Positions 3,002 to 35,362 are shown, counted from the first letter of the stretch. The stretch is DNA of 64,000 nucleotides from an uncultured Gammaproteobacteria bacterium (GCA_964435035.1 CAYSXR010000006.1:420-64419); one strand, 5' to 3'. Made by a program: numbers and translations. The notes: generated by a model not told the origin, from the letters alone.

Positions 3002-3080
3002 AACGTTTTTTTATGTGTGGAATTGTAACACAGTTTGAAAATTCGAAGTATCGTGGACTACAGGTAAGAAGTGCACAGGA

Positions 3081-3903: not shown

Positions 3904-3952
3904 ATTTGAACATATTCAAAGCCTCGCTCAAACGGGGCTTTGTGTTATACTA

Positions 3953-4037
3953 CATGCGAATTACGAATAAATCCCGAATTTACGAATTTGAATTCAAGAA
4001 ATTTATTCGTAGATTCGTACTATTCGTAATTCGCATG
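3953..4037. repeat. MITE-like palindromic repeat, copy 1 (CATGCGAATTACGAAT...ATTCGTAATTCGCATG)
   Basis: An 85-bp near-perfect palindrome built from ACGAAT/ATTCGT sub-repeats. The same termini recur at 13066..13138 and 22647..22735. It lies between rpmH and rnpA. Confidence 0.7.
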
Positions 4038-4054
4038 TAACCACTCGAAAATGT

Positions 4055-4432
4055 ATGCTTACCGAGCAGTATCGACTAAAAAAAATGAAAGATTTTGAAA
4101 TCCTCTTTAAAGAGGGTAGATTTGTGTTAGGTAATATTGTAGGTGCAAAGATCTGGAAAATTGATCCTACTAAATATCCTAAGCGTGGATATGTAGAAAC
4201 TGATCTAAAAATTGGATTTGTAGCTAGTGTAAAACATGAAAAGAAGGCTGTGGGGCGGAATCGGGTAAAGCGACAGATGCGAGAAGTGGTCAGGTTGTTG
4301 CTTAAAGATAATAGAATCAAAGAGGGCTACTTTATTGCATTTTTATCTACTCCTAAGCTTTTTAGCGCAGAATATGCTGATATTGCTCAGGACATTGAAT
4401 CTATTCTCAAAAAGGCGAGGCTACTCATCTAA
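4055..4432 (+). CDS. rnpA: Ribonuclease P protein component
   Basis: A 125-aa basic protein (RLKKMKDFEILFKEG...RNRVKRQMREV) in the conserved rpmH-rnpA-yidD order. Confidence 0.85.
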   Translation: MLTEQYRLKKMKDFEILFKEGRFVLGNIVGAKIWKIDPTKYPKRGYVETDLKIGFVASVKHEKKAVGRNRVKRQMREVVRLLLKDNRIKEGYFIAFLSTPKLFSAEYADIAQDIESILKKARLLI

Positions 4433-4462
4433 TGGTGTTTTTACTCTCAAATAAGCTAAAAT

Positions 4463-4723
4463 ATGCAATTATTTCGCTTTATTATTACTATTCCGAAAAA
4501 CATACTCTTATTCCTTATTTGGGTGTATCAGCGAACACTTTCACCTGATCATGGGCCTATGAAGGTAAAATTTCCATATGGATATTGTAAATTTACCCCG
4601 AGTTGTAGTGAGTATGGGTATCAAGTAATCAAAAAATATGGCGTGATTCGAGGGTTACCAAGGGCGGCCTGGCGAATAATTCGTTGTAACCCCTGGTCCA
4701 AAGGTGGAATAGATAAGCCTTGA
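4463..4723 (+). CDS. yidD: Membrane protein insertion efficiency factor YidD
   Basis: 86 aa with the YidD hallmark motif CxFxPSCSEYxxxAIxxxG (CKFTPSCSEYGYQVIKKYG). Confidence 0.8.
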   Translation: MQLFRFIITIPKNILLFLIWVYQRTLSPDHGPMKVKFPYGYCKFTPSCSEYGYQVIKKYGVIRGLPRAAWRIIRCNPWSKGGIDKP

Positions 4724-4874
4724 CAAAAAGTGCTTTTTTTGATTAACTAAATCATTCTCGCATGAAAACTTTATAGAGAAAGCATGTATACAATTGTGGA
4801 AATTAACACAGGTTTCTAAAATTGTGTACATGGTACTGTGGGTACATCCGTAATAGCCTCAAGCGGAGGATCAT

Positions 4875-5186
4875 GTGAAGAATAAGCGAGAATTTCTGGT
4901 GCGTGCACTGACGGAAACGTCAGATAAGATCAGGGAACATTTTCCCGGGTTCGCCTGGATGGCGGAAGTTGGGGAAGCGGAAAAGGGGACGGCAAAGTAC
5001 TCAGAGGCACGTGGCATCCACTACTCAGATACAGTGCTCCGTGAGGAAAAAGAAGAAAATCTTCTGTATCTGTTGCAAAACCTGAAAAACCTCATCAAAG
5101 AAATAGGTTTCCAGTACAAGCATCAGGTCGACGCGAAGAAGCTCGTCGAAGAAGCACTGGAAGAGATAGGTAGTCAGAAAACCTGA
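4875..5186 (+). CDS. Hypothetical protein (GTG start, moderately GC-rich)
   Basis: A GGAGGA RBS sits 5 nt before the GTG. The 103-aa product is acidic/basic mixed. A CCGTTTcgtaAAACGG hairpin follows the stop. Confidence 0.4.
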   Translation: MKNKREFLVRALTETSDKIREHFPGFAWMAEVGEAEKGTAKYSEARGIHYSDTVLREEKEENLLYLLQNLKNLIKEIGFQYKHQVDAKKLVEEALEEIGSQKT

Positions 5187-5337
5187 GACCCTACATTTTG
5201 TCCCCGTTTCGTAAAACGGAGAGCCAAGAGGAAGCAGAGCCTACAGGTTACGCCGTACCTAGAAAACAACGGCAAACCTCTTCATGTGAAACATGAACTG
5301 ATGAGCTCTAATGGAAAAAAGAGCGAAAGGTAAAAAT

Positions 5338-5362
5338 AAAACCGCCGTAAGGCGGATTTTTA
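5338..5362. terminator. Bidirectional rho-independent terminator hairpin
   Basis: AAACCGCCgtaaGGCGGATTTTT, with an A-run on one side and a T-run on the other. On the minus strand it follows the ychF stop. Confidence 0.6.
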
Positions 5363-5440
5363 TTTCATCATCTCCGTGAAAACGGGGATCTTTTTGTCTA
5401 CCAATACAGATTCCCGCTTTCGCGGGAATGACGTACAAAG

Positions 5441-6514
5441 CTAGGCGATATGAAAATAACATACATCCCCATCTTTTACTTCATAGTCTTTTCCTACTAA
5501 TTGCATTTTGCCTTTTTCTTTGACACCTGGCCAGCCACCAAGTTCTACAAAGTCGGCAACACTTGCAACATCAGCTTTGATATATCCTTTGACAAAATCA
5601 GTATGGATTACTCCTGCAGCATCAGGACCAAGGGTTCCTCTCGTAACTGTCCATGCACGAGTTTCTTGTTCTCCAGAAGTAAAGTAAGTAATCAGATTAA
5701 GTAGTTTGTATCCTGCAACAATCAATCGATCAAGTCCCGTTTCTTTCATTCCCAAATCGTCCATAAACATTTGTGCATCTTCAGAAGAAAGTTCAGCAAT
5801 TTCGGATTCAATCTTTGCACTGATTTCTATATATGGAGTGGTACCAAAAATAGTCGTGAAATCTACTTTTCCTACCGCAGTTTCTTCTACATTTACCACA
5901 TACATCATGGGTTTCATGGTGAGCAAATGTAGATCTCGCACAATCAATTTTTCATCATCATTGAATTCAAGGTCTCGTGTAGGTAATCCACTACCCAATT
6001 GTGTATTTAATTTTTCGAGTACGGCAATTTCTATTTCTTTTCCTTTTGCTGCAGCACCTTTTGCGTCGCGTTTTGTTTTATCTAATCGTTTTGAGACAGT
6101 TGCAAGGTCGGCAAGTGCAAGTTCGAGATTGATAACATCACTATCATCTTTTGGATCCACTTTTCCTGTTACATGAATGATGTTTCCATCTTCAAATGCA
6201 CGAACCACTTGTACAATTGCGTCAGCTTCACGGATATGTGTGAGAAATTTGTTTCCCAAGCCTTCTCCTTCTGACGCACCTTTCACAATTCCCGCGATAT
6301 CTACAAATTGAATCGCAGTCGGGATAATTTTTCCAGATTTTGAAGTAGTGGCTAGCGGCGCAAGTCGTCCATCGGGTACTTCTACTACGCCAACATTGGG
6401 TTCAATCGTACAAAAAGGATAGTTTGCAGCTTCAGCGAGCTTACTTTTGGTAAGCGCGTTAAAAAGTGTTGATTTTCCTACGTTGGGGAGTCCGACAATT
6501 CCAATCGATAGCAT
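5441..6514 (-). CDS. ychF: Ribosome-binding ATPase YchF/Ola1
   Basis: [23 protein letters not shown]1 motif, 357 aa, and a C-terminal TGS-like domain. Confidence 0.9.
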
Positions 6515-6673
6515 AATAACAAGTTAGTTTTGTATTGCGGAGTGTAGCAGAAGAAATCAAAAAAATCAAACCTAATATAACAAAAAAAGATATTGAAATC
6601 TTTTGAAGGTGGGTGTTCTAAGCCTGTTCGGTAAACGGACAGGCTTAGAACACGAGATCAAGGACACACGGCA

Positions 6674-6964
6674 TTAAGGTCGCCGCGTATGCGACGAGCT
6701 CGGCGCATAGCGCGCACGTCGGCGAGGGCGGACAGAGCCCCTTCTCCTTCGTGGTCGATGCCATCTTTTGGTGGGCGAACCTTCGTCCGACGAGGTGAAG
6801 AACCAGCTTATCATGTTGGGGTTAACGGGAGGGGTGACGCTGATGGCATCCTGAGTGTTGTCCAGCTCTCCGAGAGCTTTCGCCTGCTCGATAATGTATC
6901 GAGCGAACTCGGTTGCCAGACAAATGAGCGCTAAGGAGACAAAGAACTGAAGCATGATATACAT
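6674..6964 (-). CDS. Hypothetical small membrane-anchored protein in GC-rich island
   Basis: The minus frame shows the GC3 bias. The N-terminus is hydrophobic (MLQFFVSLALICLATEF) and the tail is Arg-rich. The strand and frame call is tentative. Confidence 0.3.
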   Translation of the reverse strand: MYIMLQFFVSLALICLATEFARYIIEQAKALGELDNTQDAISVTPPVNPNMISWFFTSSDEGSPTKRWHRPRRRRGSVRPRRRARYAPSSSHTRRP

Positions 6965-7262
6965 CCTTGGCTGGGTGTCGGAGCAGAAACTGGAAAAAGT
7001 ATAACAGGTTTTTTCAAAAAAACAAGACGTAAAGGGTTTCTAAGAGGAATTTTTGGGATAAATTAATCTTAGCGTGCATTAAATTATATTGTACGACGCC
7101 TATATTCAATAAGTTTAAGCTAATTAAATTCAATTTTACTATATTACGAAGAAATTATAATGCATGTGGTTAATCTTCTTCATGGAGGTAGTATCGAGAT
7201 TACGACAATAAATAATACCGTTCTGGACTGGGTCCTACTCTACTGTTTCATCTATAGGTGAT

Positions 7263-7271
7263 ATATCGACC
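7263..7271. repeat. Homopolymeric C9 tract (intergenic)
   Basis: gaCCCCCCCCCgat. It is the only long G/C homopolymer seen in the window. Confidence 0.6.
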
Positions 7272-7298
7272 CCCCCCCGATTTTTCTAATTTAGATTG

Positions 7299-7329
7299 AA
7301 GCATCAAATAAACACGGCTTATATGCCGT
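7299..7329. promoter_or_regulatory. Perfect 12-bp-arm palindrome AATAAACACGGC-ttatat-GCCGTGTTTATT
   Basis: An intergenic inverted repeat about 150 bp downstream (minus sense) of tRNA-Arg. It could be an operator or a terminator. Confidence 0.35.
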
Positions 7330-7472
7330 GTTTATTGCTAATTATTGGAACTATCCCCGACTTTAGGCTTTTTGGGTACATCGAGACGAGGTTGTACTAG
7401 TGGAATTTTCAAATTGGTGCCCCTACCGCGAATCCCCGCCCAAGGCGGGTGCGCCTTGGGCGCAGAACCTTT

Positions 7473-7547
7473 TGGTGCCCTCGACAGGAATCGAACCTGT
7501 ATCTAGACGTTAGGAGTGTCTTGTTCTATCCATTGAACTACGAGAGC
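7473..7547 (-). tRNA. tRNA-Arg (anticodon CCT)
   Basis: The reverse complement folds as a cloverleaf: acceptor GCTCTCG/CGAGGGC, D-arm GTTC..GAAC, anticodon loop CTCCTAA, T-arm CAGGTTCGATTCCTG. CCA is encoded. Confidence 0.75.
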
Positions 7548-7618
7548 ATTTTAACAACTATGACTAATTGTAAATTGTTGGTATATGTTTCATGTGAAAC
7601 AAAGCAAATAGATCTTTA

Positions 7619-8359
7619 TTATTGGGTTAATGTATACAATAGTGTGTACATAGAGCTTACAGTGGCCGCATGAGTGATAGTGTCAACATACAACTCCTCT
7701 TCCTTGTTGCTAATAGTATATATTGTGTCTTCTGAAACGATAATTTCAACCGATTTGTATACATCTGTATGCACTTTTGAGGGAATAATCCAGCGAACAC
7801 TAGGTACCGCAGGAAGATCTTTGAGAGCCTGTCTATTTTCCGGAGTGTCGAATACGCAACAGATATTTGAAAGTCTGTTAGACTGAGATTTGACTTGGAA
7901 AAAGTCTACAAGAGTCTGTCGATCAAGAGTGGTAGGGCTAAGCAAGGAAATAAGTGTATTATTATTTGTATACAGTGTTCTATACAAATCCAAAACTGCT
8001 TCTTTTCCTACACGATTTGAAAGAAATGGGCGCCCGAGCATTGTATATGACGACTCAAGTTTTGGCAAGAGATTTTCAGCATCGTTTATGCGATTATTCC
8101 ACATGTTTTTTTGTCTCTCCGCGTATTCAATTAATTTTCGCGGATGTTTCACGTGAAACTCTGCGGGCTGTGAATTCTTTTTTTGTTCAACCAAATCAAA
8201 TGCAATTAATTGATCGAGTGAATGGTATCCAAGAGTTCGGGTGATACCAGCTCGGTGGGTGATTGAGGTTACGGTTCCAGATCCAAGTTCAAGAAGAGCA
8301 AGGTACGTTTTTGCTTCAGTTTCTGCAAGTCCAATTTTTACAAGCTCTTCAATCTGCAT
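7619..8359 (-). CDS. TrmB-family (sugar-responsive) transcriptional regulator
   Basis: N-terminal winged-HTH signature LAETEAKTYLALLELGSGTVTSI typical of TrmB. 246 aa. Confidence 0.65.
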   Translation of the reverse strand: MQIEELVKIGLAETEAKTYLALLELGSGTVTSITHRAGITRTLGYHSLDQLIAFDLVEQKKNSQPAEFHVKHPRKLIEYAERQKNMWNNRINDAENLLPKLESSYTMLGRPFLSNRVGKEAVLDLYRTLYTNNNTLISLLSPTTLDRQTLVDFFQVKSQSNRLSNICCVFDTPENRQALKDLPAVPSVRWIIPSKVHTDVYKSVEIIVSEDTIYTISNKEEELYVDTITHAATVSSMYTLLYTLTQ

Positions 8360-8362
8360 AAT

Positions 8363-8380
8363 TGTAAATATAAATTTACA
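8363..8380. promoter_or_regulatory. Palindromic operator candidate TGTAAAT-ATAA-ATTTACA (copy 1)
   Basis: 7-bp inverted arms immediately upstream of the trmB-like start. It is repeated at 8416..8434. Confidence 0.35.
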
Positions 8381-8415
8381 ATAGGTAATAATTAAACTTA
8401 AATATAGTATATATT

Positions 8416-8434
8416 AGTAAATATAAATTTACAA
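8416..8434. promoter_or_regulatory. Palindromic operator candidate GTAAATATAAATTTAC (copy 2)
   Basis: Second copy of the same palindrome in the divergent regulator / 8525-gene intergenic region. Confidence 0.35.
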
Positions 8435-8472
8435 GGTAGTACTAACGTAAGATAAGCATACATCATTTAACC

Positions 8473-8501
8473 TTGACAAAGAGGGTGTTTTGTGATATAA
8501 T
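8473..8501 (+). promoter_or_regulatory. Near-consensus sigma70 promoter (TTGACA-17-TGnTATAAT)
   Basis: Exact TTGACA and TATAAT with an extended -10 TG. It sits about 25 nt upstream of a GGAGG RBS and the ATG at 8525. Confidence 0.55.
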
Positions 8502-8524
8502 TTTTTGTCCTTACAACCAGGGAC

Positions 8525-9004
8525 ATGGAGGTTATCATGCTTACGATCGTTCTATCGCTCTTTCTCCTCGTCACTCTCGTGACGGTTATCTTCCTGGCGA
8601 AGGAGCTTGTGAAAAAGTTCAGGTTCCTTAAGGGGTACACCGACAACAACAAAAACTGTCTTCGTTGGCACTATCGAGGGAGTGTTGCTGAGGGGTACAA
8701 GCCTGGCATGCACACGATCGTGCTCTATAACACCAGTGGTCTTGAATTCACGGCCGTGGCCGCGTTCGAACTTCTGCTCCCATTCGGTATCAAGGGGGTG
8801 GATAAGTTCGGACTCATCAAGAGTAGGGGTGCTGGAGTGGCCGCATTCTCGACTTATCTGGGCAAGGGGGAGTGTGATTTCATCTTCCTCATCAACGGAG
8901 CAAAGCCCGAACAGATCGAGCGCTCGATCGACATGACCGGCGAGATCGTTCCGACCCAGACGTACCCACCGCACTGGTGGCAACGGCTCGGCTTCTGGGG
9001 CTGA
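8525..9004 (+). CDS. Hypothetical membrane-anchored protein in GC-rich island
   Basis: 159 aa with an N-terminal TM helix (MLTIVLSLFLLVTLVTVIFL). The DNA is GC-rich with GC3 bias. It has its own strong promoter and RBS. Confidence 0.45.
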   Translation: MEVIMLTIVLSLFLLVTLVTVIFLAKELVKKFRFLKGYTDNNKNCLRWHYRGSVAEGYKPGMHTIVLYNTSGLEFTAVAAFELLLPFGIKGVDKFGLIKSRGAGVAAFSTYLGKGECDFIFLINGAKPEQIERSIDMTGEIVPTQTYPPHWWQRLGFWG

Positions 9005-9136
9005 ACATCTGAGCGCATCTCGCGCTCCTTCCAAAGGTATGGAAGTAAAGCCAGTACAAACTGCGGAGTTCTGCCAAAGAGCTCCGCCCAAACCAAAAGT
9101 ACATCACATCAGTGGTGTCTTTTTGTTTTTGATATG

Positions 9137-9175
9137 AACCCCACCCTGCCCCTCCCCTTGTGAAGGGGAGGGAAC
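9137..9175. repeat. GC-rich hairpin repeat AACCCCACCCTGCCCCTCCCCttgtgaAGGGGAGGGAAC
   Basis: A stem CCCTCCCC/GGGGAGGG preceded by CCCCACCCTG. A near-identical copy lies at 63422..63459. Confidence 0.6.
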
Positions 9176-9216
9176 TTGTTTATGCAGGAATGACAGAGAG
9201 AAATGTTTGTGTTATT

Positions 9217-9320
9217 ATGGATAATACTATGGATGGACTGTTATCAATCCTAATACTGATCTTTGGTGCTGCTGCGGCAGGATTGATTTGGTTTTTCTTT
9301 GGTAAAATTGGGAAGAAATA
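9217..9320 (+). CDS. Possible 34-aa single-TM microprotein
   Basis: ATG..TAA ORF encoding MDNTMDGLLSILILIFGAAAAGLIWFFFGKIGKK. It was not in the ORF track because it is under 60 aa. Confidence 0.2.
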
Positions 9321-9324
9321 AATA

Positions 9325-9357
9325 CTAGTTTTCTGGTTTACTGGTTATCTAGTTGTT
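9325..9357. repeat. Dispersed motif copy 1 (TTTTCTGGTTTACTGGTTATCTAGTTGT)
   Basis: It shares an exact 25-mer with 46337..46361 (reverse complement). Related copies lie at 37109..37184 and 56788..56829. Confidence 0.6.
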
Positions 9358-9386
9358 TGGTAAGAGAATAAAATTATTACTATATT

Positions 9387-10484
9387 ATGCAAACTGGATT
9401 ATTGATTGTATTCGCGGTACTATTGCTCGCCATGCTCGGAGTAATACTTATGATGTATAAAAAGTTAACTGGTGCAGGAAAAAATAAAGAAAATCCTGAG
9501 GAACAAAAAGCAATATTTCTCATGTTCCAACAGCAATTGCAGGACATGCAAAAAACCATGGACACAAAAATTTCTGAAACGCATAAAATTGTAGGAGACG
9601 GTCAGCAAAACCTTCATCACACACTCCAAACACAGTTTGCACAAAGTTCAAAAATCATTACAGACATTACTGAAAAATTAACGACGCTTGATAAAACCAA
9701 TCAACAAGTAATTGGTTTTTCTGCGCAATTGAGTGATCTTGAAAAAGTGTTGAAACACCAGAAACAACGGGGAAATTTGGGTGAAGTAGGACTTAATCTG
9801 CTTCTTGAAAATATTTTGTCACCCAATGATTTCAAAACACAACATCATTTCAATAATGGAGATATTGTGGACGTTGCAATATTTACCAAAGAGGGAATTA
9901 TTCCGGTGGACGCCAAGTTTTCACTCGACAATTATGAACGGTTGATTCATGAACCAGAGGGTGTGAATCGCGACAACCTAGAAAAAGATTTCAAAAATGA
10001 TTTGAAGAAACGAATTGATGAAACAGCAAAATATATTAAGCCAGATGAAGGAACTCTTGAGTTTGCATTCATGTATATTCCGTCTGAAGCAATCTATTAC
10101 GATCTTCTGGTGAATGAGGTCGGGGCAGTAAAAGTAAATACGAGAAATTTGATTGATTATGCCTTTAATGAAAAGAAAGTGGTAATTGTTTCACCCACTA
10201 CCTTCTCGGCATATCTCCAGACGGTACTCTTTGGTCTTCGAGCTTTGAAGATTGAAGAAGGAGCAAAGATGATTCGAAAGAATGTGGAGATGCTCGGGAA
10301 ACATATCAATGCGTATGACGAGTATATGAAGAAGTTGGGATTGAGTATGTCTACGACCGTAAACCACTTCAATACCGCTTATAAGGAGCTTGGTAAAATT
10401 GATAAGGATGTAGTGCGGATCACGGGGGCGAGCGAGAAGGTAATTGTGCCTGATCTCCTTGATAAACCTCAGCTTGACAGTTAG
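9387..10484 (+). CDS. rmuC: DNA recombination protein RmuC
   Basis: N-terminal TM helix, a long coiled-coil, and a C-terminal RmuC-type domain (KVVIVSPTTFSAYLQTVLFGLRAL). Confidence 0.75.
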   Translation: MQTGLLIVFAVLLLAMLGVILMMYKKLTGAGKNKENPEEQKAIFLMFQQQLQDMQKTMDTKISETHKIVGDGQQNLHHTLQTQFAQSSKIITDITEKLTTLDKTNQQVIGFSAQLSDLEKVLKHQKQRGNLGEVGLNLLLENILSPNDFKTQHHFNNGDIVDVAIFTKEGIIPVDAKFSLDNYERLIHEPEGVNRDNLEKDFKNDLKKRIDETAKYIKPDEGTLEFAFMYIPSEAIYYDLLVNEVGAVKVNTRNLIDYAFNEKKVVIVSPTTFSAYLQTVLFGLRALKIEEGAKMIRKNVEMLGKHINAYDEYMKKLGLSMSTTVNHFNTAYKELGKIDKDVVRITGASEKVIVPDLLDKPQLDS

Positions 10485-10553
10485 TCATTATTTAGCTATA
10501 CTGCGGCTTACTCTCACATATTTATTATAAATCCGAAGAATTAGATATTTATT

Positions 10554-10823
10554 ATGCCAATTTTAAGAAATGCCAAGAAAGCTCTGCGCCAATCAAAGAA
10601 GCGTGAAGCTGAAAACCTCGTTTTCAAACGCGCGTACAAAGAAGCTTTGAAAAAAGCTCGAGCCGCAGTTGAAAAAGGTGAAAAAGACATGGGAGACAAA
10701 ATCAAGCTTGCTCAAAAGAAACTTGATAAAGCAGTAAAGAAAGGTGTGCTGAAGCAAGGTGCTGCATCACGATACCTCTCACGAATGACTTCAAAAGCTG
10801 CAAAACTTGTAAAGAAAGCGTAA
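10554..10823 (+). CDS. rpsT: 30S ribosomal protein S20
   Basis: An 89-aa Lys/Ala-rich protein with the S20-like N-terminus MPILRNAKKALRQSKKRE. Confidence 0.8.
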   Translation: MPILRNAKKALRQSKKREAENLVFKRAYKEALKKARAAVEKGEKDMGDKIKLAQKKLDKAVKKGVLKQGAASRYLSRMTSKAAKLVKKA

Positions 10824-10835
10824 AAATCTTATACT

Positions 10836-10870
10836 ATCCTACACCAAAATAGTGTAGGATTTTTATTTTT
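10836..10870 (+). terminator. Rho-independent terminator after rpsT
   Basis: ATCCTACACcaaaataGTGTAGGAT followed by TTTTATTTTTT. Confidence 0.7.
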
Positions 10871-12063: not shown

Positions 12064-12064
12064 A

Positions 12065-12982: not shown

Positions 12983-13065
12983 TTTTCGAAGTGATTCGCG
13001 ACTTCGAAATGTATCTTTGCCGTAGAGGAAGATGAGTATAGGTGGTGGGGTTAATTGAGGGATTA

Positions 13066-13138
13066 CATGCGAATTACGAATGGTACGAATATACGAATAA
13101 ATTCAATTAGTATATTCGTACCATTCGTAATTCGCATG
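13066..13138. repeat. MITE-like palindromic repeat, copy 2
   Basis: CATGCGAATTACGAATGGTACGAAT...ATTCGTACCATTCGTAATTCGCATG. It overlaps the presumed 5' end of holA. Confidence 0.7.
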
Positions 13139-13263
13139 TCAATTGTACCTGGTTTTGTATCATTACTCAATCTCTTGAATTGGAGATCAAAGTAGTGTAC
13201 ACTAGTCTCGTGTTTATACTTACTTTTAATATATTGCGTATGTGTATGAAGGGTGAATCAAAA

Positions 13264-13746: not shown

Positions 13747-13870
13747 ATTTGATTAAGACAAACAAAATTCGCCTGCACTATGGGCGAATTTTGTTTTTGC
13801 ATGTTAGTAGACTAGGCAATCTATTGGGCGCCTTGCTATAATAAGGAAACGTTTAATGTAGTTATAGTCT

Positions 13871-15100
13871 ATGATGGAAAAAATAAAAACAGATGTGGTA
13901 ATTCTTGGGGCTGGAATTGGAGGGTATGAAGCTTTTCGTACGCTTAATCGAAATTTGAAACGAAAAGGACTAGGGAGCCATATTACGATAGTAGATGAAA
14001 ACAATTATTTTACTTTTATCCCTTTGTTACATGAGGTCTCTACGGGCTCTGTTGAGTCTACTCATGCATCAATACCATTGCGTGAATTAGTTCATAATAC
14101 TCCGCATGCCTATGTCAATGCCAGAGTAGAACATATTGAGTATGAAAAAAAAGAAGTCCATACTACAAGCGGTATCATTTCTTTCGATTATTGTGTTATT
14201 GCATTAGGAAGTACGGTGAATTTTTATGGTGTACCGGGTACCACTGAATTTACTCACCATGTGCGAAGTTTGAAAGATGCACTTGCACTTAAATATGCAT
14301 TGGTGGAGAATCTTGAGAATTGTAAAACTGATGAGTGTATGATCACTGTTGTCGGGGGAGGGTATGTGGGAGTGGAAATTGCAGGACAATATGGAACACT
14401 CAAAAATGGGGATTTAAAAAAATTATATCCGCACAAAAAAATTACTGTACGAATTATTGAACCAAATAATTCGGTTTTGTCTGCAATGAAACCGGGTATA
14501 CAAGCGCGTGTAACAAAACGTCTAGAAAAATTAGGGATAGAATTTGTATATAATAATTCAGTTGTTAAAGTTACTAAAAATTCAGTAATACTAAAAACTG
14601 GTGAAGAGATTGCGAGTGATATTACGGTGTGGGCAGCTGGATTTATGAATCTGGGCACACAGTTTGTGGAAGAAAGTAAATGTGAAAAAGGTAGAATTAA
14701 AGTGGATCAGTATTTACGAATGGAAGAGAATGAAGCTTGCTATGCAATTGGAGATATTGCCTACACACTTGATGGAGTTACAGGAAAATCTTGTCCTCAA
14801 CTTGCTGAGGTAGCTCATAAGGCAGGTAAGTTTGTAGGGGTGGATATTGCACGGAGAATTGCGGGAAAAGAAGTGAAACCATTTACATTCAAATCAAAAG
14901 GTCAACTCATGCCAGTCGGAGATTGGTATGGAATTGCAGTAATTGGGGGTAAAGTATTTTATGGTTGGTTTGCATGGTGGATACGCCGAACGGTGTATGT
15001 ACTTTATATGCCAGGAATCCTTCGAAAATTACGAATTGTGTTTGATTGGACAATTCACAGTCTTGGATTTGGACATTTTATACATATTGAAAAAAAATAG
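13871..15100 (+). CDS. Type II NADH dehydrogenase-like FAD-dependent oxidoreductase
   Basis: Two Rossmann motifs (VVILGAGIGG, VVGGGYVGVEIAG), the NDH-2 signature FTFIPLLHEV, and a hydrophobic C-terminal tail. Confidence 0.7.
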   Translation: MMEKIKTDVVILGAGIGGYEAFRTLNRNLKRKGLGSHITIVDENNYFTFIPLLHEVSTGSVESTHASIPLRELVHNTPHAYVNARVEHIEYEKKEVHTTSGIISFDYCVIALGSTVNFYGVPGTTEFTHHVRSLKDALALKYALVENLENCKTDECMITVVGGGYVGVEIAGQYGTLKNGDLKKLYPHKKITVRIIEPNNSVLSAMKPGIQARVTKRLEKLGIEFVYNNSVVKVTKNSVILKTGEEIASDITVWAAGFMNLGTQFVEESKCEKGRIKVDQYLRMEENEACYAIGDIAYTLDGVTGKSCPQLAEVAHKAGKFVGVDIARRIAGKEVKPFTFKSKGQLMPVGDWYGIAVIGGKVFYGWFAWWIRRTVYVLYMPGILRKLRIVFDWTIHSLGFGHFIHIEKK

Positions 15101-15246
15101 CATCGCAAAAATGAAATTATAATCCTATATTGTTTGTTCGATATAGGATTTTTTGTTATAGTCAAATTACAGTCCGCTAGCATAAGGAGGAGCGGGCATA
15201 GACTCGTGGCTGTCCCCAGGATAAGGGACAACAGTTCGGTGGACTA

Positions 15247-15783: not shown

Positions 15784-15946
15784 CCATTCATGCCAGGGAC
15801 AAAAGACAGCGCATCAGCGCTTTCCTTGTACCCTGGCCATTCTTTTTTAGTCGAAAGTCTCTACAGTTAAAAAGTCGAAAGAAAATACAATAACACAAGT
15901 TTTGAAATAAGACTTTCAAACTTTAAAGACTATATGACTTTCGACT

Positions 15947-18631
15947 CTACTTCATCTCCCCCCATCGATCGCCAATCTCTACTCCTACATCGATTGGCAC
16001 TCTGAGTTTTGCTACATTTTGCATTTCATTTTTTACAATCTCCGCAACTGTTTCGGCATATTTCTCCTCAACTTCTAAAACAAGTTCATCGTGTATCTGC
16101 AATGTCATTCGAGCATGCACATCAAGTAATTTTTCTTTTTTGAGCGCATGGTAGACCGCAATCATTGCCATCTTCATTATGTCCGCTGCGGTTCCTTGGA
16201 TCGGCATATTGATTGCCATGCGTTCTCCTGCTGCTTGGATTTGTCTATTGGGTGATTGTAATTCGGGTACATAACGTTTTCGACCAAATAATGTTTCTAC
16301 ATACCCAGTTTTTTTTGCTTCTTCAAGTGTATTATCTAAATATGTTTTTACACCAGAAAATGTTTCAAAATATTTTTTGATAAAATCTTTTGCTTCAAAT
16401 TGACTTATACCAGTTCGAGAAGCGAGTCCAAATGCACCCATGCCATATAAGACTCCGAAGTTAACTTCTTTTGCCGATCGTCGAATATCTTTGGTAACTT
16501 TATCCAGTGGAATATTGTGAATTGCGGCAGCAGTTGCGGTATGAATATCTTCACCTTTTTTAAATATCTCAATCATTTTTTCGTCATTCGCAAGAGACGC
16601 AACAATACGCAATTCAATTTGAGAATAATCAGCTGAAATCAGTTTATTTCCCTTGTCTGCAATAAATGCTTTGCGTACATCTTTCCCTAATTCAGTTCTA
16701 ATTGGGATATTTTGCAAATTGGGGTCAATACTTGAGAGTCGTCCCGTAGCTGCAATTGCCTGGTTGAATGTCGTGTGAATTCTACCGGTTTTTGGATTAA
16801 TCAGTGTTGGTAATACATCAATATAGGTATTTCGAAGTTTTTCTACTTCACGATATTCTTCAATAAAAGGAATAATAGAATGCATTTCCCGTAACTTTTC
16901 AAGTTCACTCGCAGCAGTTGAATAACCTGTTTTACCTTTTTTTATCATGTCAGTCGGAAGTCCTAGATCGACAAATAAAATATCCCGAAGTTGGGTGGAA
17001 GACGACACGTTGAATTCTTTTCCTGCTTCTTTCCAGATTTTAGCCTCCAACTCTGTAATCGTTTTTGCAATTTTTTCTGATAATCTTCCAAGGAGTGGAA
17101 TATCAATGGCGACTCCTGCGAGCTCCATGTGTGCGAGTACGGGGATGAGTGCCATTTCGATGTCTTCAAATAATCCCTTCTCTGATTCACTTACTAATTG
17201 TTTTTCATATTTCTCTGTTACTTTGAGCATTGCTGCGAGTTCGGTTGCAATAATTTTTGGGTCAATGCCGAATAGTGATGATTGATCTGTATTGGGTAAT
17301 TCAATTCCTAATTCTCGAATCGCAATTGATTCCATATCATGCGCACGAGTACTGGAGTTCAGTAAATACGATGCAATCATGACATCAAATAACTGCGCTT
17401 TGAATTCAACGCCTACATGCGTGTACAGTTTTACAAATTGTTTTACATCATGCCCGACAATGGTAATGTCTTTCGAATTAAAAGGAAGTTTTTCAAGCAT
17501 TGAAAGTGGAATCATCCACGAAGTGTCGGCAATAACACATACAATTCCAGTACATGTTGAGGTGATGATATTTCCATTTTCATTCTGGAAACAAGGTCGA
17601 CATGCGCAGACTTTATATTTTTGTATAAGTGTACTAAGCTCTGAAATATTTTTAGTATCAACGTTGACCACTTCACCAACTTTCATCTTTTTTTCTTTCT
17701 TTTTAGAAATAGTGGTTTTTTCTTCAACTACTTCTGTTCCTCCCGACACACGCTTCACGAGAGAGTAAAAACCGAATTTTTTGAATAATTCAATTACATC
17801 TTCTCGTTTATAAGAAGTCGTCTGCATTTCTGGAAGTGAGTATTCGGTATCAGGAACATTAGTATCGATGGTCGCAAGTTTTTTACTCATCAATGCTGAC
17901 TCATATCCCTCAGTTAATTTCTTTTGTACACTTGCAGATATTTTTTTGTCTTCTTTTTTCAGCGCATCATAAATTTTTTCAAGTGATCCAAAATTTGCGA
18001 TTAATTCTGTCGCAGTTTTTTCTCCCACACCTTTCACACCTGGAATATTATCAGAAGTATCCCCACGAAGAGATTTGTAATCAATCATTTGTGCCGGAGA
18101 AAAACCGAATTTTTCACGCATGTGACTTTCATTGAATAATTCAAAATCTGACATTCCTTTTCGGAGAAGATACACTTCGATTTTGTTGTCATCAATCAAT
18201 TGTAATAAATCTTTGTCACCCGTCACGATAATACAGGTGATGTCTTTGTGTGCTCCAGTAATTTTTTTGGCCAATGTTCCAATAAGATCATCAGCCTCAA
18301 ATCCCGTCTTCGTGTAAATAGGTACATTAAAACCTTTTACTAGTTCATGTACGAGTGGAATCTGATCATAGAGTGCCTGATCAGTCTTTACTCGGGTAGC
18401 TTTGTATTCGGTATAGATTTCATCTCGAAAGGTTCCACCAGCTACGTCAAAAGTCGTAACTAGGTAGTCAGGTTTGAGGTCTCCCATGACTTTGAGGAGC
18501 ATGGATGCAAACCCATAAACAGCGTTAACTAGAGTGCCATCTGGAGCAGTGAGCGGTGGTAGGGCATGGTAGGCGCGGTGGATAATCGCATTTCCATCAA
18601 TAATGACGACTGTTTTATTGGTTTTTGTCAT
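15947..18631 (-). CDS. polA: DNA polymerase I
   Basis: 894 aa with an N-terminal 5'-3' exonuclease (VVIIDGNAIIHRAYHALPPL), a degenerate middle domain, and C-terminal polymerase motifs (DYSQIELR, QIHDELVLE). Confidence 0.95.
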   Translation of the reverse strand: MTKTNKTVVIIDGNAIIHRAYHALPPLTAPDGTLVNAVYGFASMLLKVMGDLKPDYLVTTFDVAGGTFRDEIYTEYKATRVKTDQALYDQIPLVHELVKGFNVPIYTKTGFEADDLIGTLAKKITGAHKDITCIIVTGDKDLLQLIDDNKIEVYLLRKGMSDFELFNESHMREKFGFSPAQMIDYKSLRGDTSDNIPGVKGVGEKTATELIANFGSLEKIYDALKKEDKKISASVQKKLTEGYESALMSKKLATIDTNVPDTEYSLPEMQTTSYKREDVIELFKKFGFYSLVKRVSGGTEVVEEKTTISKKKEKKMKVGEVVNVDTKNISELSTLIQKYKVCACRPCFQNENGNIITSTCTGIVCVIADTSWMIPLSMLEKLPFNSKDITIVGHDVKQFVKLYTHVGVEFKAQLFDVMIASYLLNSSTRAHDMESIAIRELGIELPNTDQSSLFGIDPKIIATELAAMLKVTEKYEKQLVSESEKGLFEDIEMALIPVLAHMELAGVAIDIPLLGRLSEKIAKTITELEAKIWKEAGKEFNVSSSTQLRDILFVDLGLPTDMIKKGKTGYSTAASELEKLREMHSIIPFIEEYREVEKLRNTYIDVLPTLINPKTGRIHTTFNQAIAATGRLSSIDPNLQNIPIRTELGKDVRKAFIADKGNKLISADYSQIELRIVASLANDEKMIEIFKKGEDIHTATAAAIHNIPLDKVTKDIRRSAKEVNFGVLYGMGAFGLASRTGISQFEAKDFIKKYFETFSGVKTYLDNTLEEAKKTGYVETLFGRKRYVPELQSPNRQIQAAGERMAINMPIQGTAADIMKMAMIAVYHALKKEKLLDVHARMTLQIHDELVLEVEEKYAETVAEIVKNEMQNVAKLRVPIDVGVEIGDRWGEMK

Positions 18632-18730
18632 AAAAATATTAAGTAAGAATAGTATAGCAGGTTTTATGGTTCCTGAAACCTAAAAATTAGATATAGCGCC
18701 GGATGAAGCTGAAATACGAGAGATGTATCC

Positions 18731-19156
18731 TTGACAAGCCAGATATGCAGGTGTATTTTTTGTTACTGGTGTTCTGATTCGTACTGCAAGGGGGTGTGTA
18801 TGGGTGTCTGTGACAGGTTTTTCTACAGTTCGTTCGATGTCTGGGGATTCTATATTCCCACAGACTTCGTCCCGAGGGCGAGGATCACTGTCTACGGGAA
18901 TCCACGCAATCGGGTGGGGGGGCATGTCATCTATATCGAGGATGTCACGCCTGTGAACGAGAGGATCATCAGTATCACGGGCTACACGTGGCCTCTGTAC
19001 AGTGTGACACCAGGGATTCCAGGTGCAGATTCGAGGCATCGGATGAACGGCGTCCTCTACACCGACCTGAGCCTCGTCTGCATACGTCCTGGATGGGGGC
19101 CTCCGCGGCTGCCGCCAGGGTGGCTCGCATCCATCCGTAGTATCATCACACATTAA
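18731..19156 (+). CDS. Hypothetical Cys-rich protein in GC-rich island (strand ambiguous)
   Basis: The plus frame begins at TTG, has GC3 bias and a Cys-rich N-terminus (CRCIFCYWCSDSYCKGVCMGVC). A hairpin CCTCTGCAC..GTGCGGAGG follows its stop. The opposite-strand 157-aa ORF 18680..19153 cannot be excluded. Confidence 0.25.
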   Translation: MTSQICRCIFCYWCSDSYCKGVCMGVCDRFFYSSFDVWGFYIPTDFVPRARITVYGNPRNRVGGHVIYIEDVTPVNERIISITGYTWPLYSVTPGIPGADSRHRMNGVLYTDLSLVCIRPGWGPPRLPPGWLASIRSIITH

Positions 19157-19167
19157 GGAGGAAAAAG

Positions 19168-19205
19168 CCTCTGCACTGGTATATACTGGTGCGGAGGTTC
19201 CTGTT
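19168..19205 (+). terminator. Hairpin after the 18731 ORF
   Basis: CCTCTGCAC-tggtatatactg-GTGCGGAGG followed by a T-rich tract. Confidence 0.35.
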
Positions 19206-19450
19206 TATATAGAAAAATGTAGTTAATTTTTCTATATTGAGGTAAAAAATTGGATAAAAGGCTTGACAAAATGGCTTAAATATGGTATATTCTCTAGTTC
19301 AAAATCGTCCTTTATAATATCTTTCTTGGCTTTCTTTTTGCCTTATTTTAGCTTAAAATATGCAGAAAGAAGGCTGTCAACGAAGCACATGGATTGTCAA
19401 AAACTTGACACAGGGTCAGGCATAAGACATTCCGTGTAAAGGAGTGAATC

Positions 19451-19768
19451 GTGGGAAAGAATCGGCGTCAGAGCAATTTCGCACAGTGGAGTCGAGATGC
19501 ACAGGTGGAGCTCGATGAAGAGGCGGATGAACTCGAGCGGCAACGTCTATGGTATGAGGGGTTGGATGACGAAGATATAGTCGAGCCGGAGAGCTCAACC
19601 GACGAGGGTAGCTGCTACGAGCCTGGTGAGGAGTACAGCGGAGCTCATCACGATGATTCCTTCGCCGACATGGCTCGTGAGCCGTTCACCGAGGACGAGA
19701 TTGTCCAGATCGACCAGAAACTCGAGGATCATATCGCGGTGAATCGTGAGTGCAACTCAAAATCCTGA
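19451..19768 (+). CDS. Hypothetical highly acidic 105-aa protein in GC-rich island (GTG start)
   Basis: An AAGGAG RBS sits 7 nt upstream of the GTG. About one-third of residues are D/E. GC3 bias. A CCCGTATC-atac-GATACGGG hairpin lies downstream. Two TTGACA-type promoters lie upstream (19267 and 19404). Confidence 0.45.
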   Translation: MGKNRRQSNFAQWSRDAQVELDEEADELERQRLWYEGLDDEDIVEPESSTDEGSCYEPGEEYSGAHHDDSFADMAREPFTEDEIVQIDQKLEDHIAVNRECNSKS

Positions 19769-19947
19769 ACTCCTGTTTAGGTAAGTCTATACGGGCTTCA
19801 TGGAGCGTGACGTTCCTGGCCCGTCGGGCTCGACGAACCCCCGTATCATACGATACGGGGTTGAATGTTTTTATAGGGTATTTTAGCCTTTGACATTTCT
19901 CATACTTTTCGCTATAATCTCGAAACTTCTAGACATAATTATATTCT

Positions 19948-21252
19948 ATGGAACACACGCATAAAAAACTCAAAAACTCAGAAATCGAGATGACTATTAC
20001 GGTCACCGCTGCTGAATATGAAAAACACTTACGAAAAGCAGCAGAACGGATTTCAAATAGAACTACCATCAAAGGCTTCCGCAAAGGACATGCTCCTTTT
20101 GATATGGTAAAACGAGAAATCGGCGAAATGCATGTGATGAATGAAGCACTCGAGAGCATTCTCCAGGAAACATTTTATAATGCAGTGATGGCAGAGAAAC
20201 TGGATACCATCGGAATGCCAAAAATTAATATTGAAAAAATCGCTCCAGGCAATGATTTTGTATACAAAGCAGTAGTGGCACTTCTTCCTGTAGTGACTCT
20301 GCCAAAACTCGACAAAATCAAAGTAGAACACAAAGCAAAACCAGTAACTGAAACTGATATCGATGCAGTGATTGAAAACCTCACCAAAATGCAGGCAGTA
20401 GAAGTGGTAAAAGAAGGCCCTGCTACTAAAGAAGATAAAGTGGTAATCGATATGGACCTACTTCTCGATGGAGTACCTATCGAAGGTGGGCAGGCAAAAG
20501 ATTACCAGGTCTATCTCTCAGAAAATCAGCACATCCCTGGATTCAATGATGCGCTTCTCGGAGTGAGTAAGGGAGAAGAAAAAGAATTTGATGTTCCATT
20601 TCCAAAAGATTATTACAACAAAATGCTTGCGGGAAACACTGGACACTTCAAAACGAAAGTGAAAGAAGTGTATACTCGAGTATTTCCAGAAGTGAATGAT
20701 GAATTTGCAAAAAAAGTAGGACAAGACAGTGTAATCAAACTCCGAGAATTATTACAGAGTAACATGGAACATGAAGCACTTCACAAAGCTGATGAAGTAG
20801 CTGAGATCGAAATGTTTGATGCCCTGATCGACAAATCAAAATTCGAAGAAATTCCTGAAGTGTTGATCGATGCTGAACGAAAGAAAATGTTTTATGAATT
20901 AAAACGTGATCTTGAAAAAAATGGAATCACGATTGATCAATACTTGGCAGACTTGAAAAAAAGTGAAGAAGATATTCAGAAAGATTTTACTGAGCAAGCA
21001 ACCAAGCGTGCAAAAGCAGCACTCGTGTCTCGCCAAATTGCAAAGGATGAAAATCTTACGGTAGATGATACTGAGCTTGCTGAAGAAATTGAAAAAATGA
21101 AAAAAGAATATAAGGATCATCCAGAATATTTGGAGAATCTAAATAAAGCAGAGGTGAAAGATTCAGTTCGAACCTACTTGGTAAATCGAAAAGTAATCAA
21201 TTTCCTCCGAGAGAAAATTTTGACAGGAAGACCAGAGCATACACATGACTAG
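19948..21252 (+). CDS. tig: Trigger factor
   Basis: 434 aa with a ribosome-binding N-domain (TIKGFRKGHAPFDMV), a central FKBP-type PPIase domain and a C-terminal arm. Confidence 0.9.
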   Translation: MEHTHKKLKNSEIEMTITVTAAEYEKHLRKAAERISNRTTIKGFRKGHAPFDMVKREIGEMHVMNEALESILQETFYNAVMAEKLDTIGMPKINIEKIAPGNDFVYKAVVALLPVVTLPKLDKIKVEHKAKPVTETDIDAVIENLTKMQAVEVVKEGPATKEDKVVIDMDLLLDGVPIEGGQAKDYQVYLSENQHIPGFNDALLGVSKGEEKEFDVPFPKDYYNKMLAGNTGHFKTKVKEVYTRVFPEVNDEFAKKVGQDSVIKLRELLQSNMEHEALHKADEVAEIEMFDALIDKSKFEEIPEVLIDAERKKMFYELKRDLEKNGITIDQYLADLKKSEEDIQKDFTEQATKRAKAALVSRQIAKDENLTVDDTELAEEIEKMKKEYKDHPEYLENLNKAEVKDSVRTYLVNRKVINFLREKILTGRPEHTHD

Positions 21253-21292
21253 TTGTCTGGTTGAGAAAATTTGCGTAACTAAGAATTTAATT

Positions 21293-21394
21293 AAATCCGT
21301 GTTAATCCGTTCAATCCGTGTCATCCGTGTTCCATTTAGCGAAAGTTAAAGAATAGAACACGGATTTAACGGATCTGACGGATAGGCACGGATT
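21293..21394. repeat. Inverted array of iterated ATCCGT(G) motifs
   Basis: The left arm is AAATCCGTG TTAATCCGT TCAATCCGTG TCATCCGTG and the right arm is CACGGATTT AACGGATCTG ACGGATAGG CACGGATTT, with 4+4 repeats. It lies between tig and the DUF167 gene. Confidence 0.6.
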
Positions 21395-21404
21395 TAGAAT
21401 TTAT

Positions 21405-21626
21405 ATGCGTCTTACTATTATCGTAAAACTTCGCTCATCAAAAACTGACGTAATACAAATTTCAGAATCAGAATATCAAGTTCGTCTCACTGCGTCTCCG
21501 GTTGATGGGGAGGCAAACGAACAGCTAATAAAAGTATTAAGCGAATATTTTGATATTGCAAAAACCCACATTTCAATTCTTAAAGGTAAAACAGGAAAGA
21601 AGAAAATGGTAGAAATCAGCAAATAA
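21405..21626 (+). CDS. DUF167/YggU-family protein
   Basis: 73 aa with the family core LTASPVDGEANEQLIKVLSEYF. Confidence 0.7.
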   Translation: MRLTIIVKLRSSKTDVIQISESEYQVRLTASPVDGEANEQLIKVLSEYFDIAKTHISILKGKTGKKKMVEISK

Positions 21627-21693
21627 AAAAATCCCTTGATAGGGAATGGGTGTGCTCGCACCTGTCGACCGAAGTCTAAGGATGCGAGCACAC
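21624..21693 (-). terminator. Tandem hairpins terminating the minus-strand GC-island gene
   Basis: TCCCTtgatAGGGA preceded by an A-run (a T-run on the minus strand), plus the 11-bp-stem hairpin GTGTGCTCGCA...TGCGAGCACAC. Confidence 0.5.
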
Positions 21694-21707
21694 GAGCTAC
21701 GACGCGG

Positions 21708-21995
21708 TCACTGCGTCAGGTGAAAGTCCAGTCGGACGGGCTTGTGGATCGGCTGATCCGCCATGGCCTCGAGCGTGAGGCAATTGCCCTTGAGCTCCTT
21801 CTTCCACTTGGTCGCCTCGAGGCAGTCGGTACGTCCGTTGTAGTGGACGACGATCGTCTGAGCGAACTCGGTGACACGGGTGGGACCCTTGTGCACCTTC
21901 AGTGGTCTCTTGCTGAAGTTGCGGTAAATGACGACCTTGTGGCCGACGAGCACGACCGGTTCGGCCAGTGCGATTTCTTCAGAGTGCTTGGACAT
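21708..21995 (-). CDS. Hypothetical 95-aa protein in GC-rich island
   Basis: Very strong GC3 bias in the minus frame. It is followed by terminator hairpins. No recognised domain. Confidence 0.4.
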   Translation of the reverse strand: MSKHSEEIALAEPVVLVGHKVVIYRNFSKRPLKVHKGPTRVTEFAQTIVVHYNGRTDCLEATKWKKELKGNCLTLEAMADQPIHKPVRLDFHLTQ

Positions 21996-22212
21996 GTGCG
22001 TGTTTCTCCTGGTGACGGTCGGCAGGTAGCTCGACAGGTGCGTAGTATAAAGGTTTTACAGAGGTTGTCAATAATTTGTGTGAGTAAACAAAACACCGCC
22101 TCGATCTCCTTTACTGTCCCGAAGTTTTTCGGACCAATAAAGGCATGAGGCGGTGAAATAGTAGTGTTCACTTGTGGGTTGTAGTCGACCGCGACATGCC
22201 AGGGAGTAGAAG

Positions 22213-22557
22213 TTACTTTTTGGAAATTTCATGTTCCGAGGGGGTGAGAGTGCGCCAATCGTGACAACGATTGTGGTGATCACCATAGATCGCAACTTCT
22301 TCGTACCGAGTGAAATCCTTCAGTCGAGGACAGTTGGTGAACCAGTAGACCTCGCCGAGGTACATGTTCATGATCATGATGGTGTACTCACCTCGATAAA
22401 CGGGATATCCGATTGCGGGCCGACGGTCGAGTTCCATTGCTATCGCACCCTGTTCGTTCCCGACGATCTTGATCGCGCCGGCGATCACGAATGTGATGAG
22501 AACGAGCCAGATGAATGGCTGGGTGTACAGACGTTTTGTGTTGAGTTTTTCTTCCAT
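22213..22557 (-). CDS. Hypothetical membrane-anchored protein in GC-rich island
   Basis: The start was chosen at MEEKLNTKRLY. It has a TM helix (FIWLVLITFVIAGAI) and GC3 bias. Confidence 0.35.
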   Translation of the reverse strand: MEEKLNTKRLYTQPFIWLVLITFVIAGAIKIVGNEQGAIAMELDRRPAIGYPVYRGEYTIMIMNMYLGEVYWFTNCPRLKDFTRYEEVAIYGDHHNRCHDWRTLTPSEHEISKK

Positions 22558-22646
22558 CGCAATTCTCCGTTGCAAAAAGAGCGAACACTGGTATCTAGTA
22601 TTCCCAAAAAGATAGGATGTTGTCAAGAAGATTTCAAACCAGGCTA

Positions 22647-22735
22647 CATGCGAATTACAAATGGTACGAATTTGCGAATGCTGAAATTCAAAATTCTAAT
22701 CCATTCGTGTATTGGTTTTATTCGTAATTCGCATG
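22647..22735. repeat. MITE-like palindromic repeat, copy 3
   Basis: CATGCGAATTACAAATGGTACGAAT...TTATTCGTAATTCGCATG. It directly abuts the GC-rich island. Confidence 0.7.
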
Positions 22736-35347: not shown

Positions 35348-35362
35348 AGTAAAAAGTAAAAA

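Follow-up and report, generated by a model that had tools for sequence, protein, structure and literature searches.

Candidate miniature foldback insertion elements built from CGAAT units in a bacterium near Candidatus Magasanikbacteria

Repeat copies and their structure

The DNA analyzed in this study (the window) is a stretch of 64,000 nucleotides (nt) recorded as coming from an uncultured Gammaproteobacteria bacterium (GCA_964435035.1, CAYSXR010000006.1:420-64419). It carries three copies of a palindromic repeat built from short CGAAT units, here referred to as the CGAAT element. The nearest named relatives of the PolA encoded in the window (15947-18631, minus strand), at ~60% identity, are Candidatus Magasanikbacteria of the candidate phyla radiation (CPR, or Patescibacteria), and further PolA relatives at 80-94% identity were found in several metagenome-assembled genomes (MAGs). 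PolA places the host among CPR bacteria, close to Candidatus Magasanikbacteria. The copies and the genes next to them are listed below, in which numbers preceded by L denote the loci used for comparison.

3952..4038, no strand assigned: copy 1, 87 nt, in the rpmH-rnpA spacer and rnpA leader; the homology of relatives breaks exactly at 3951/3952
13065..13139, no strand assigned: copy 2, 75 nt, in the holA leader; a near-perfect palindrome, missing from L078 and present as a decayed copy in L082
22646..22736, no strand assigned: copy 3, a degenerate palindrome of 91 nt that lies upstream of the next promoter, where a methyltransferase gene has its 3' end; also in L078, not in L081-L083
3727..3903, plus strand: rpmH, 58 amino acid residues (aa)
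4055..4432, plus strand: rnpA, 125 aa
12065..13039, minus strand: holA, whose ancestral start position (13039-13037) reads ATA
22718..23851, minus strand: methyltransferase gene

A sequence-only reading of the window had reported three copies with conserved termini, and their positions were borne out. The 16-mer CATGCGAATTACRAAT had six exact matches in the window, forming three inverted pairs; the only further match had 3 mismatches, and 0 of 100 shuffles reached 7 matches. The terminus common to all three copies is actually 17 nt, ACATGCGAATTACGAAT, one base longer than the 16-mer, which gives elements of 87, 75, and 91 nt. When the fourth copy found at locus L011 (described below) was included, the 17-nt termini were identical in seven of the eight ends. 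Given that the termini showed 1 change in 136 terminal positions while the interiors differed by ~25-40% between copies, the ends would be selected or recognized. The cores, which had been described as variable next to conserved ends, were less variable than stated: the copies could be aligned along their entire length, at a mean column identity of 75%, and the copy of L011 could be aligned in full as well.

All copies share one plan, in which an arm of the form GCGAAT-T-ACGAAT-spacer-(T)ACGAAT-spacer-ACGAAT is joined through a loop to its mirror image, with ~4 CGAAT units per arm at 7-11 nt spacing. The suggested interior of ACGAAT/ATTCGT sub-repeats thus held, as CGAAT/ATTCG units were found throughout. 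Across the whole window, ACGAAT was not enriched (52 matches vs. 44.8 expected). The calculated DNA folding energies of copies 1, 2, and 3 were -27.5, -35.2, and -17.1 kcal/mol, with z scores against shuffles of -9.2, -15.7, and -4.0, respectively. Although all copies fold better than shuffled sequence, the long perfect hairpin that had been ascribed to each applies only to copy 2, whose 34-nt arms are 97% complementary; the hairpin of copy 1 has internal loops, and the arm complementarity of copy 3 is 77%.

In the consensus fold of the copies, the terminal stem never varied, the inner pairs were frequently broken and the covariation term was unfavourable (+1.88), and constraint on an RNA structure was rejected on these grounds. 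Because the CGAAT units are kept across copies while the spacers between them vary and are often non-complementary, and because the consensus fold is without covariation, the constraint appears to lie on the DNA sequence and not on RNA pairing. It would act at the DNA level, as it does for transposase-binding ends and subterminal repeats. No coding capacity was found, as only chance open reading frames (ORFs) of 44-46 aa cross the elements. Rfam searches returned no family at the elements, with three tRNAs alone passing the gathering thresholds in the window, and nothing matching the copy of L011 at E<=1. The idea that the copies share one orientation with respect to transcription or replication was also rejected: copy 3 aligned slightly better when inverted and the L011 copy is antisense to its genes, although the palindromic form makes such orientation calls weak.

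Insertion sites in the window and its relatives

A scan for paired termini of 185,579 species genomes, one per species, of the Genome Taxonomy Database (GTDB) identified one additional intact element of 83 nt, in the MAG CAYGHM01 (locus L011, CAYGHM010000002.1). This copy begins 3 nt past the stop codon of a glycosyltransferase gene and ends 15 nt before the start codon of holB. Compared with relatives whose MreB is 95% identical, in which the spacer is 21 nt, the spacer of L011 is 101 nt, which equals the 83-nt element plus 18 nt. The filled site of L011 and the empty site of L084 differ by a clean insertion with no visible duplication. MreB of CAYGHM01 groups with Magasanikbacteria, and all of its named neighbours are Candidatus Magasanikbacteria. 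The label of this MAG, "uncultured Gammaproteobacteria," is at odds with these neighbours and is, by this comparison, probably wrong.

The same scan of JGI metagenome contigs gave 0 matches, as did IMG/VR searches, in which either the paired termini or one 17-mer alone was used, and blastn searches of phage and plasmid records gave no match. An nhmmer profile run over the window and 89 loci returned only family copies, apart from the decayed copy of L082 and other hairpins built from units, which were matched weakly (E>0.1). For comparisons of sites, a PolA query of metagenomes was of no use, as it returned only distant relatives (<=58% identity), and an exact-protein look-up with RnpA gave no match.

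The sites of copies 1 and 2 are best described with reference to the promoters of this organism. Many genes of the window, among them dnaA, ychF, and polA, have the extended -10 motif TGnTAtAcT at 19-31 nt upstream of the start codon, with examples at the following positions.

3022-3030, minus strand
6541-6549, minus strand
13834-13842, plus strand
18651-18659, minus strand
30981-30989, plus strand
35471-35479, plus strand

Given its recurrence near start codons, this motif looks like the usual extended -10 box of the organism, with very short leaders being the norm. Copies 1 and 2 begin 0 and 2 nt, respectively, past conserved -10 boxes, by which normally short leaders become ~100 nt long, and for three of the four copies, a start codon follows 15-27 nt downstream of the element. 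At site 1, two further features precede the element.

3918..3941, plus strand: short GC-containing hairpin after rpmH, AAAGCCTCG-CTCAAA-CGGGGCTTT, followed by GTGTT; terminator-like and conserved in relatives, read by eye and not called by the strict terminator scan
3943..3951, plus strand: extended -10-like box TGTTATACT, which directly abuts copy 1 and is kept in all relatives though the downstream sequence differs

Copy 1 begins at the base right after TGTTATACT and ends 16 nt before the ATG of rnpA. Eight contigs with an identical RpmH were identified, whose genes were 85-90% identical to those of the window; the homology stopped at 3951/3952 and resumed at rnpA. Past the conserved -10 box, L008 and L009 (same strain) carry the element, L001, L003, and L007 have an unrelated filler of 49 nt, and L002, L004, and L006 have, instead of the CGAAT element, an rnpA leader of ~145 nt with two GGAGG/CCTCC hairpins (e.g., L004 814-1005). 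Copy 1 is, judged from its sequence context, part of the rnpA leader.

Similar to copy 1, copy 2 lies next to a conserved promoter.

13142..13170, minus strand: promoter-like site of holA, TTGAGT-17-TACAAT, which is kept in relatives and has the start of copy 2 at 2 nt downstream

This promoter is common to seven syntenic relatives, and the leader that follows it is different in each, ranging from 23 to 76 nt. In the window, a C/A-rich leader segment of 25 nt separates copy 2 from the ancestral start codon position; the element therefore lies in the leader, and the overlap with the 5' end of holA that had been proposed was not borne out. Minus copy 2, the distance from the -10 box to the start would be 27 nt, compared with a typical range of 19-31 nt in the window. 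At site 2, no element is present in L078, the closest relative (PolA 94% identical), and what occupies the same place in L082 is a decayed copy (TGCGAATTA...TAATTCGCG). The start codon of holA is ATG in all seven relatives and ATA in the window (13037-13039, minus strand). The holA frame is open back to 13063, and use of the first ATG (12982) would cost 19 conserved N-terminal residues. Two independent Logan contigs (L090 and L091), each matching the window at 100% identity, terminate at 13111, within copy 2, which is most simply explained as an assembler break at a perfect inverted repeat of 34 nt. In addition, the holA leader of L081 (after TACAAT) and site 3 of L076 both open with GCATGCAC, which resembles the element terminus ACATGCGA. 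These starts may be footprints of older or variant insertions, to judge from this resemblance.

Different from copies 1 and 2, copy 3 touches a coding sequence and lies upstream of a promoter.

22718..22736, minus strand: part of copy 3 that gives the last five methyltransferase codons (HANYE) and the TAA stop; the C-termini are RHANYE* in the window and L078 vs. KFRK(V/T/A)* in the outgroups
22597..22626, minus strand: promoter-like site TTGACA-18-AATACT of a 114-aa gene, 19 nt downstream of copy 3 and conserved
22213-22557, minus strand: the 114-aa gene

The outgroups L081-L083 have no element at this site, and their methyltransferase ends with ...WKF(R/K)K(V/T/A)*; for L082 and L083, the TGA that stops it falls within the TTGACA -35 box of the promoter of the next gene. 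In the window and L078, the element comes after ...TTTAG and supplies HANYE and the stop. Copy 3 of the window differs from that of L078 by 2 substitutions in 91 nt, with flanks that are 96.7% identical. L076, L077, and L079 are without the element, but possess 17-31 nt resembling its left end (CATGCACAATAA, CATTCGAATTAA), resulting in the C-termini RHAQ* and RHSN*. The simplest history suggested by these alignments is one old insertion in the ancestor of a sub-clade followed by later deletions; alternatively, the site may be a recurrent insertion hot spot. Copy 3 had been said to abut a GC island, which was not found: the GC content of 22001-24000 is 0.42, and that of all 2-kb windows ranges from 0.37 to 0.45.

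A probable dispersed element weighed against other explanations

We consider it probable, with moderate confidence, that the CGAAT elements are a low-copy family of miniature, non-coding and non-autonomous foldback insertion elements, similar to MITEs (miniature inverted-repeat transposable elements), in CPR bacteria of the Magasanikbacteria class. That four non-homologous loci of two lineages have the same 17-nt termini, with interiors that can be aligned, argues against a local origin and for a sequence that was dispersed, and the comparisons of orthologous sites polarize each case as a gain. As read from these alignments, each of the four loci, which lie in two genomes and are not homologous to one another, gained its copy by insertion as a derived state, and after insertion the copies are subject to decay or deletion. 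The element has terminal inverted repeats, a small size (75-91 nt, compared with <400 bp for MITEs), no transposase ORF, and dispersed copies with insertion polymorphism, being absent at orthologous sites in L084-86, L081-83, and L078. The presence/absence difference among relatives was observed at site 2 for L078, at site 3 for L081-L083, and at the holB site for L084-86. The small MITE-like family proposed in the sequence-only reading was retained to the extent of its derived insertions, and parted from expectation in its flanks, where target-site duplications (TSDs) were sought and none was found.

The elements would be moved in trans by an enzyme that recognizes the conserved terminal stem and perhaps the CGAAT units too. 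Given the lack of TSDs and the hairpin form, a single-strand or hairpin intermediate, as in IS200/IS605/RAYT-type systems (RAYT, REP-associated tyrosine transposase; REP, repetitive extragenic palindrome), is suggested, with both the mechanism and the enzyme being inferred. At sites 1 and 2, the element lies between the -10 box and the expected transcription start (~7 nt past the -10 box), so that the mRNAs of rnpA and holA would begin in its left arm and bear, at the 5' end, a stand-alone hairpin of ~30-35 bp, with the start-codon region left unpaired. RNA folding predicted such a self-contained hairpin (dG of approximately -40 kcal/mol) with the C/A-rich segment and the start codon free. A 5'-terminal hairpin could protect an mRNA or be a substrate of RNase III. 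At site 3, the element would have replaced the last codons of the methyltransferase. These effects on adjacent genes would be by-products of insertion.

Several results weigh against this interpretation. No TSD flanks any of the four copies (TATACT|AACCAC, GGGATT|CAATTG, CAGGCT|CTAAAT, and ATCATA|TTTTTA), and a TA target duplication was rejected, as TA occurs on both sides of copy 1 only. No transposase or parent insertion sequence (IS) with matching termini was found in the window, the only recombinase among its genes being a Xer-like tyrosine recombinase (46411-47424). Near-identical assemblies of the runs SRR12762283, SRR12762285, and SRR12762287 showed no polymorphism, and thus no sign of current activity, and the relatives at sites 1 and 2 are too diverged for clean empty-site comparison. 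The copy number is low, with three copies in 64 kb that are all within 19 kb and a single intact copy in one other GTDB species genome. Finally, clamp-loader genes (holA and holB) come immediately downstream of two of the four sites, which would rarely be expected from random insertion.

This last observation is also a point in favour of a host cis-regulatory module, in which either a protein that binds DNA or RNA would have its sites in the CGAAT array, or a hairpin in the 5' leader would have been selected to adjust how stable low-abundance housekeeping mRNAs (rnpA, holA, and holB) are or how they are translated. The two clamp-loader sites are in different genomes, and a module of this kind would also accord with the position of three copies just before start codons and of two just past -10 boxes, with the conservation of units and termini over that of the spacers, and with the similarly built ATCCGTGT hairpin (21292-21396), which is 98% identical in L082 vs. 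~85% in the flanking genes. However, orthologous sites in the closest relatives are without the element, copy 3 is upstream of a promoter and not within a leader, the orientation relative to transcription is inconsistent, ACGAAT is not enriched outside the elements, and covariation gives no support. We thus regard a regulatory module as unlikely, though it is the foremost of the alternatives. It is more improbable still that the palindromes were made locally, by template switching or hairpin-templated repair with unit slippage in hypervariable spacers and without transposition. That these genomes contain many unrelated unit-built hairpins (with ATCCGTGT, AAAGTA, TAAAGAT, GCAAATA, and CTACAAA units), that copy 2 is nearly a perfect palindrome with both arms of one type, and that the left terminus at site 3 coincides with methyltransferase codons present in element-free relatives too would all fit such an origin, but the termini and interiors shared across four non-homologous loci would not.

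An attenuator or terminator between rpmH and rnpA had been suggested for copy 1, which does form a stable hairpin between two co-oriented genes. No U-run follows the hairpin, whose flank is AACCACUCG, and the terminator scan called no terminator there, so that such a role is without support; moreover, the terminator-like hairpin and extended -10 box precede copy 1 as separate conserved features, the stem is AT-rich and ~35 bp, unlike that of intrinsic terminators, and relatives are without the element at site 1. This explanation is, in our opinion, very improbable. For the family as a whole, an intrinsic terminator was likewise rejected, with no terminator called at any copy and no T-run in the sense of local genes.

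Comparison with known repeats places the element closest in form to the bacterial MITEs Correia (CREE) of Neisseria, RUP, and ERIC, as defined in PMC3184786. Similar to these, it is ~100 bp, non-coding and intergenic, often 5' of genes and co-transcribed, with terminal inverted repeats and a long hairpin; its presence varies among relatives and it can alter gene ends. Different from Correia, RUP, and ERIC, all of which have a TA TSD, the CGAAT element has none. It also has no sequence similarity to those families and no known parent IS, is of very low copy number, has arms of ~4 tandem CGAAT units, and occurs in a CPR host. REP, BIME (bacterial interspersed mosaic element), and REPIN sequences are mobilized by RAYT transposases (PMC3116915; PMC3733652). 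Like the CGAAT element, REPs and REPINs are extragenic palindromic repeats without TSDs, thought to move as single-stranded hairpins and transcribable as RNA hairpins, and PMC3733652 also notes REPs in or near replication genes. However, REPs are 20-40 bp, G+C-rich, tagged with GTAG/CGTC and present in tens to hundreds of copies, and a REPIN consists of two inverted REPs, each a palindrome. The REP/BIME-like alternative of the earlier reading was hence given up: the CGAAT stem is AT-rich and ~35 bp, and neither end bears a GTAG/CGTC tag. As to copy number, three copies were counted in 64 kb, and one intact copy in the only GTDB species genome that had any. Membership among REPINs was rejected as well, the arms being arrays of direct CGAAT repeats and not palindromes, with no Y1 transposase/RAYT in the window.

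Other classes were considered. Integron attC sites, defined by R''/R' core sites RYYYAAC...GTTRRRY in cassette arrays adjoining intI, were rejected, as the ends ...GAATTAC / GTAATTC... do not fit GTTRRRY and the copies are 9 kb apart beside housekeeping genes. Rickettsia palindromic elements (RPEs) are palindromic repeats of ~100 bp that can enter the end of a gene and join its protein, and are frequently in-frame within genes. Copy 3 resembles them in joining a coding end (RHANYE*), whereas no sequence relationship exists and only one of the four CGAAT copies touches a gene. Eukaryotic Foldback (FB/Galileo-type) transposons are kilobase-scale, linked to a transposase and produce TSDs. They share inverted arms of short tandem sub-repeats and conserved extreme termini with the CGAAT element, which is an architectural analogy only, given the difference in scale, their eukaryotic hosts, their transposase family, and their TSDs. 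A TIGR (tandem interspaced guide RNA) array was set aside, as the unit period of 7-11 nt and the single-hairpin form are unlike a guide array.

Other unit-built hairpins and wider significance

The window contains a further hairpin of 105 nt (21292-21396) with four ATCCGTGT units per arm, whose end is 8 nt upstream of the ATG of a PF02594 gene encoding 73 aa. In the orthologous spacer of L082 (6570-6700), 128 of 131 nt are identical, compared with ~85% in the flanking genes, while L078 is without it and has a DUF559 gene in its place. By this comparison, the ATCCGTGT hairpin looks constrained or recently exchanged. Hairpins with A-rich/T-rich arms of short units (GAAAGTC, AAAAGTAAAAAG, AAAACTAAAA) were also observed downstream of polA and elsewhere, and they differ in each relative. 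Probably an unusual, long-stemmed kind of bidirectional terminator, they were found at these positions.

15894-15946 and 35346-35457 of the window: A-rich/T-rich hairpins
12729-12802 of L079: A-rich/T-rich hairpin
12694-12770 of L076: A-rich/T-rich hairpin
2046-2126 of L084: A-rich/T-rich hairpin

More intergenic hairpins of tandem units, namely TAATTAG, TTCAAA, TAACAA, CTACAAA, TACGAA, and ACGGAT, were identified at the positions below. The TACGAA unit of the L012 element is nearly that of the CGAAT family, with different termini.

55728-55817, 58815-58894, and 30914-30961 of the window: tandem-unit hairpins
4277-4378 of L011: tandem-unit hairpin
14480-14560 and 940-1020 of L012: tandem-unit hairpins

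It is conceivable, though we hold it doubtful, that the CGAAT element is one family of a broader, undescribed "tandem-unit foldback" class in Magasanikbacteria and other CPR bacteria, which perhaps prefers the melted -10/+1 region of promoters and in which at least one member (the ATCCGTGT hairpin) shows much stronger conservation than the genes on its flanks. Such a class may have arms of 3-5 tandem, family-specific units of 5-8 nt (CGAAT, ATCCGTGT, TACGAA, CTACAAA, TAAAGAT, and GCAAATA) and reside in the hypervariable leaders and spacers of streamlined genomes. If the class were real, the conservation of the ATCCGTGT hairpin would imply its domestication as a regulatory or RNA element.

Other genes of the window include dnaN and dnaA (minus strand), yidD (plus strand), and a DoxX-like gene. 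In addition, nine genes with a C-terminal T4SS_pilin domain (PF18895) were observed in a run at 36370-43983, interspersed with two ORFs that have no Pfam match and a gene for an ABC-type solute-binding protein (37230-38606).

The genomes of CPR bacteria/Patescibacteria are ~1 Mb, streamlined, and thought to be repeat-poor. Literature searches found no description of MITE-like repeats in CPR bacteria/Patescibacteria. The palindromic insertion family reported here is real and previously undescribed in a CPR lineage, and otherwise a fairly ordinary small repeat. It is of practical value for annotation and as a strain marker, and perfect palindromes such as copy 2, at which two contigs ended, break short-read assemblies. 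For the biology of these bacteria, it means that the short leaders and operon spacers of CPR genomes are still invaded and remodelled by miniature palindromic elements, whose insertions can rewrite gene ends and the promoter-proximal sequence of essential genes (rnpA, holA, and holB).

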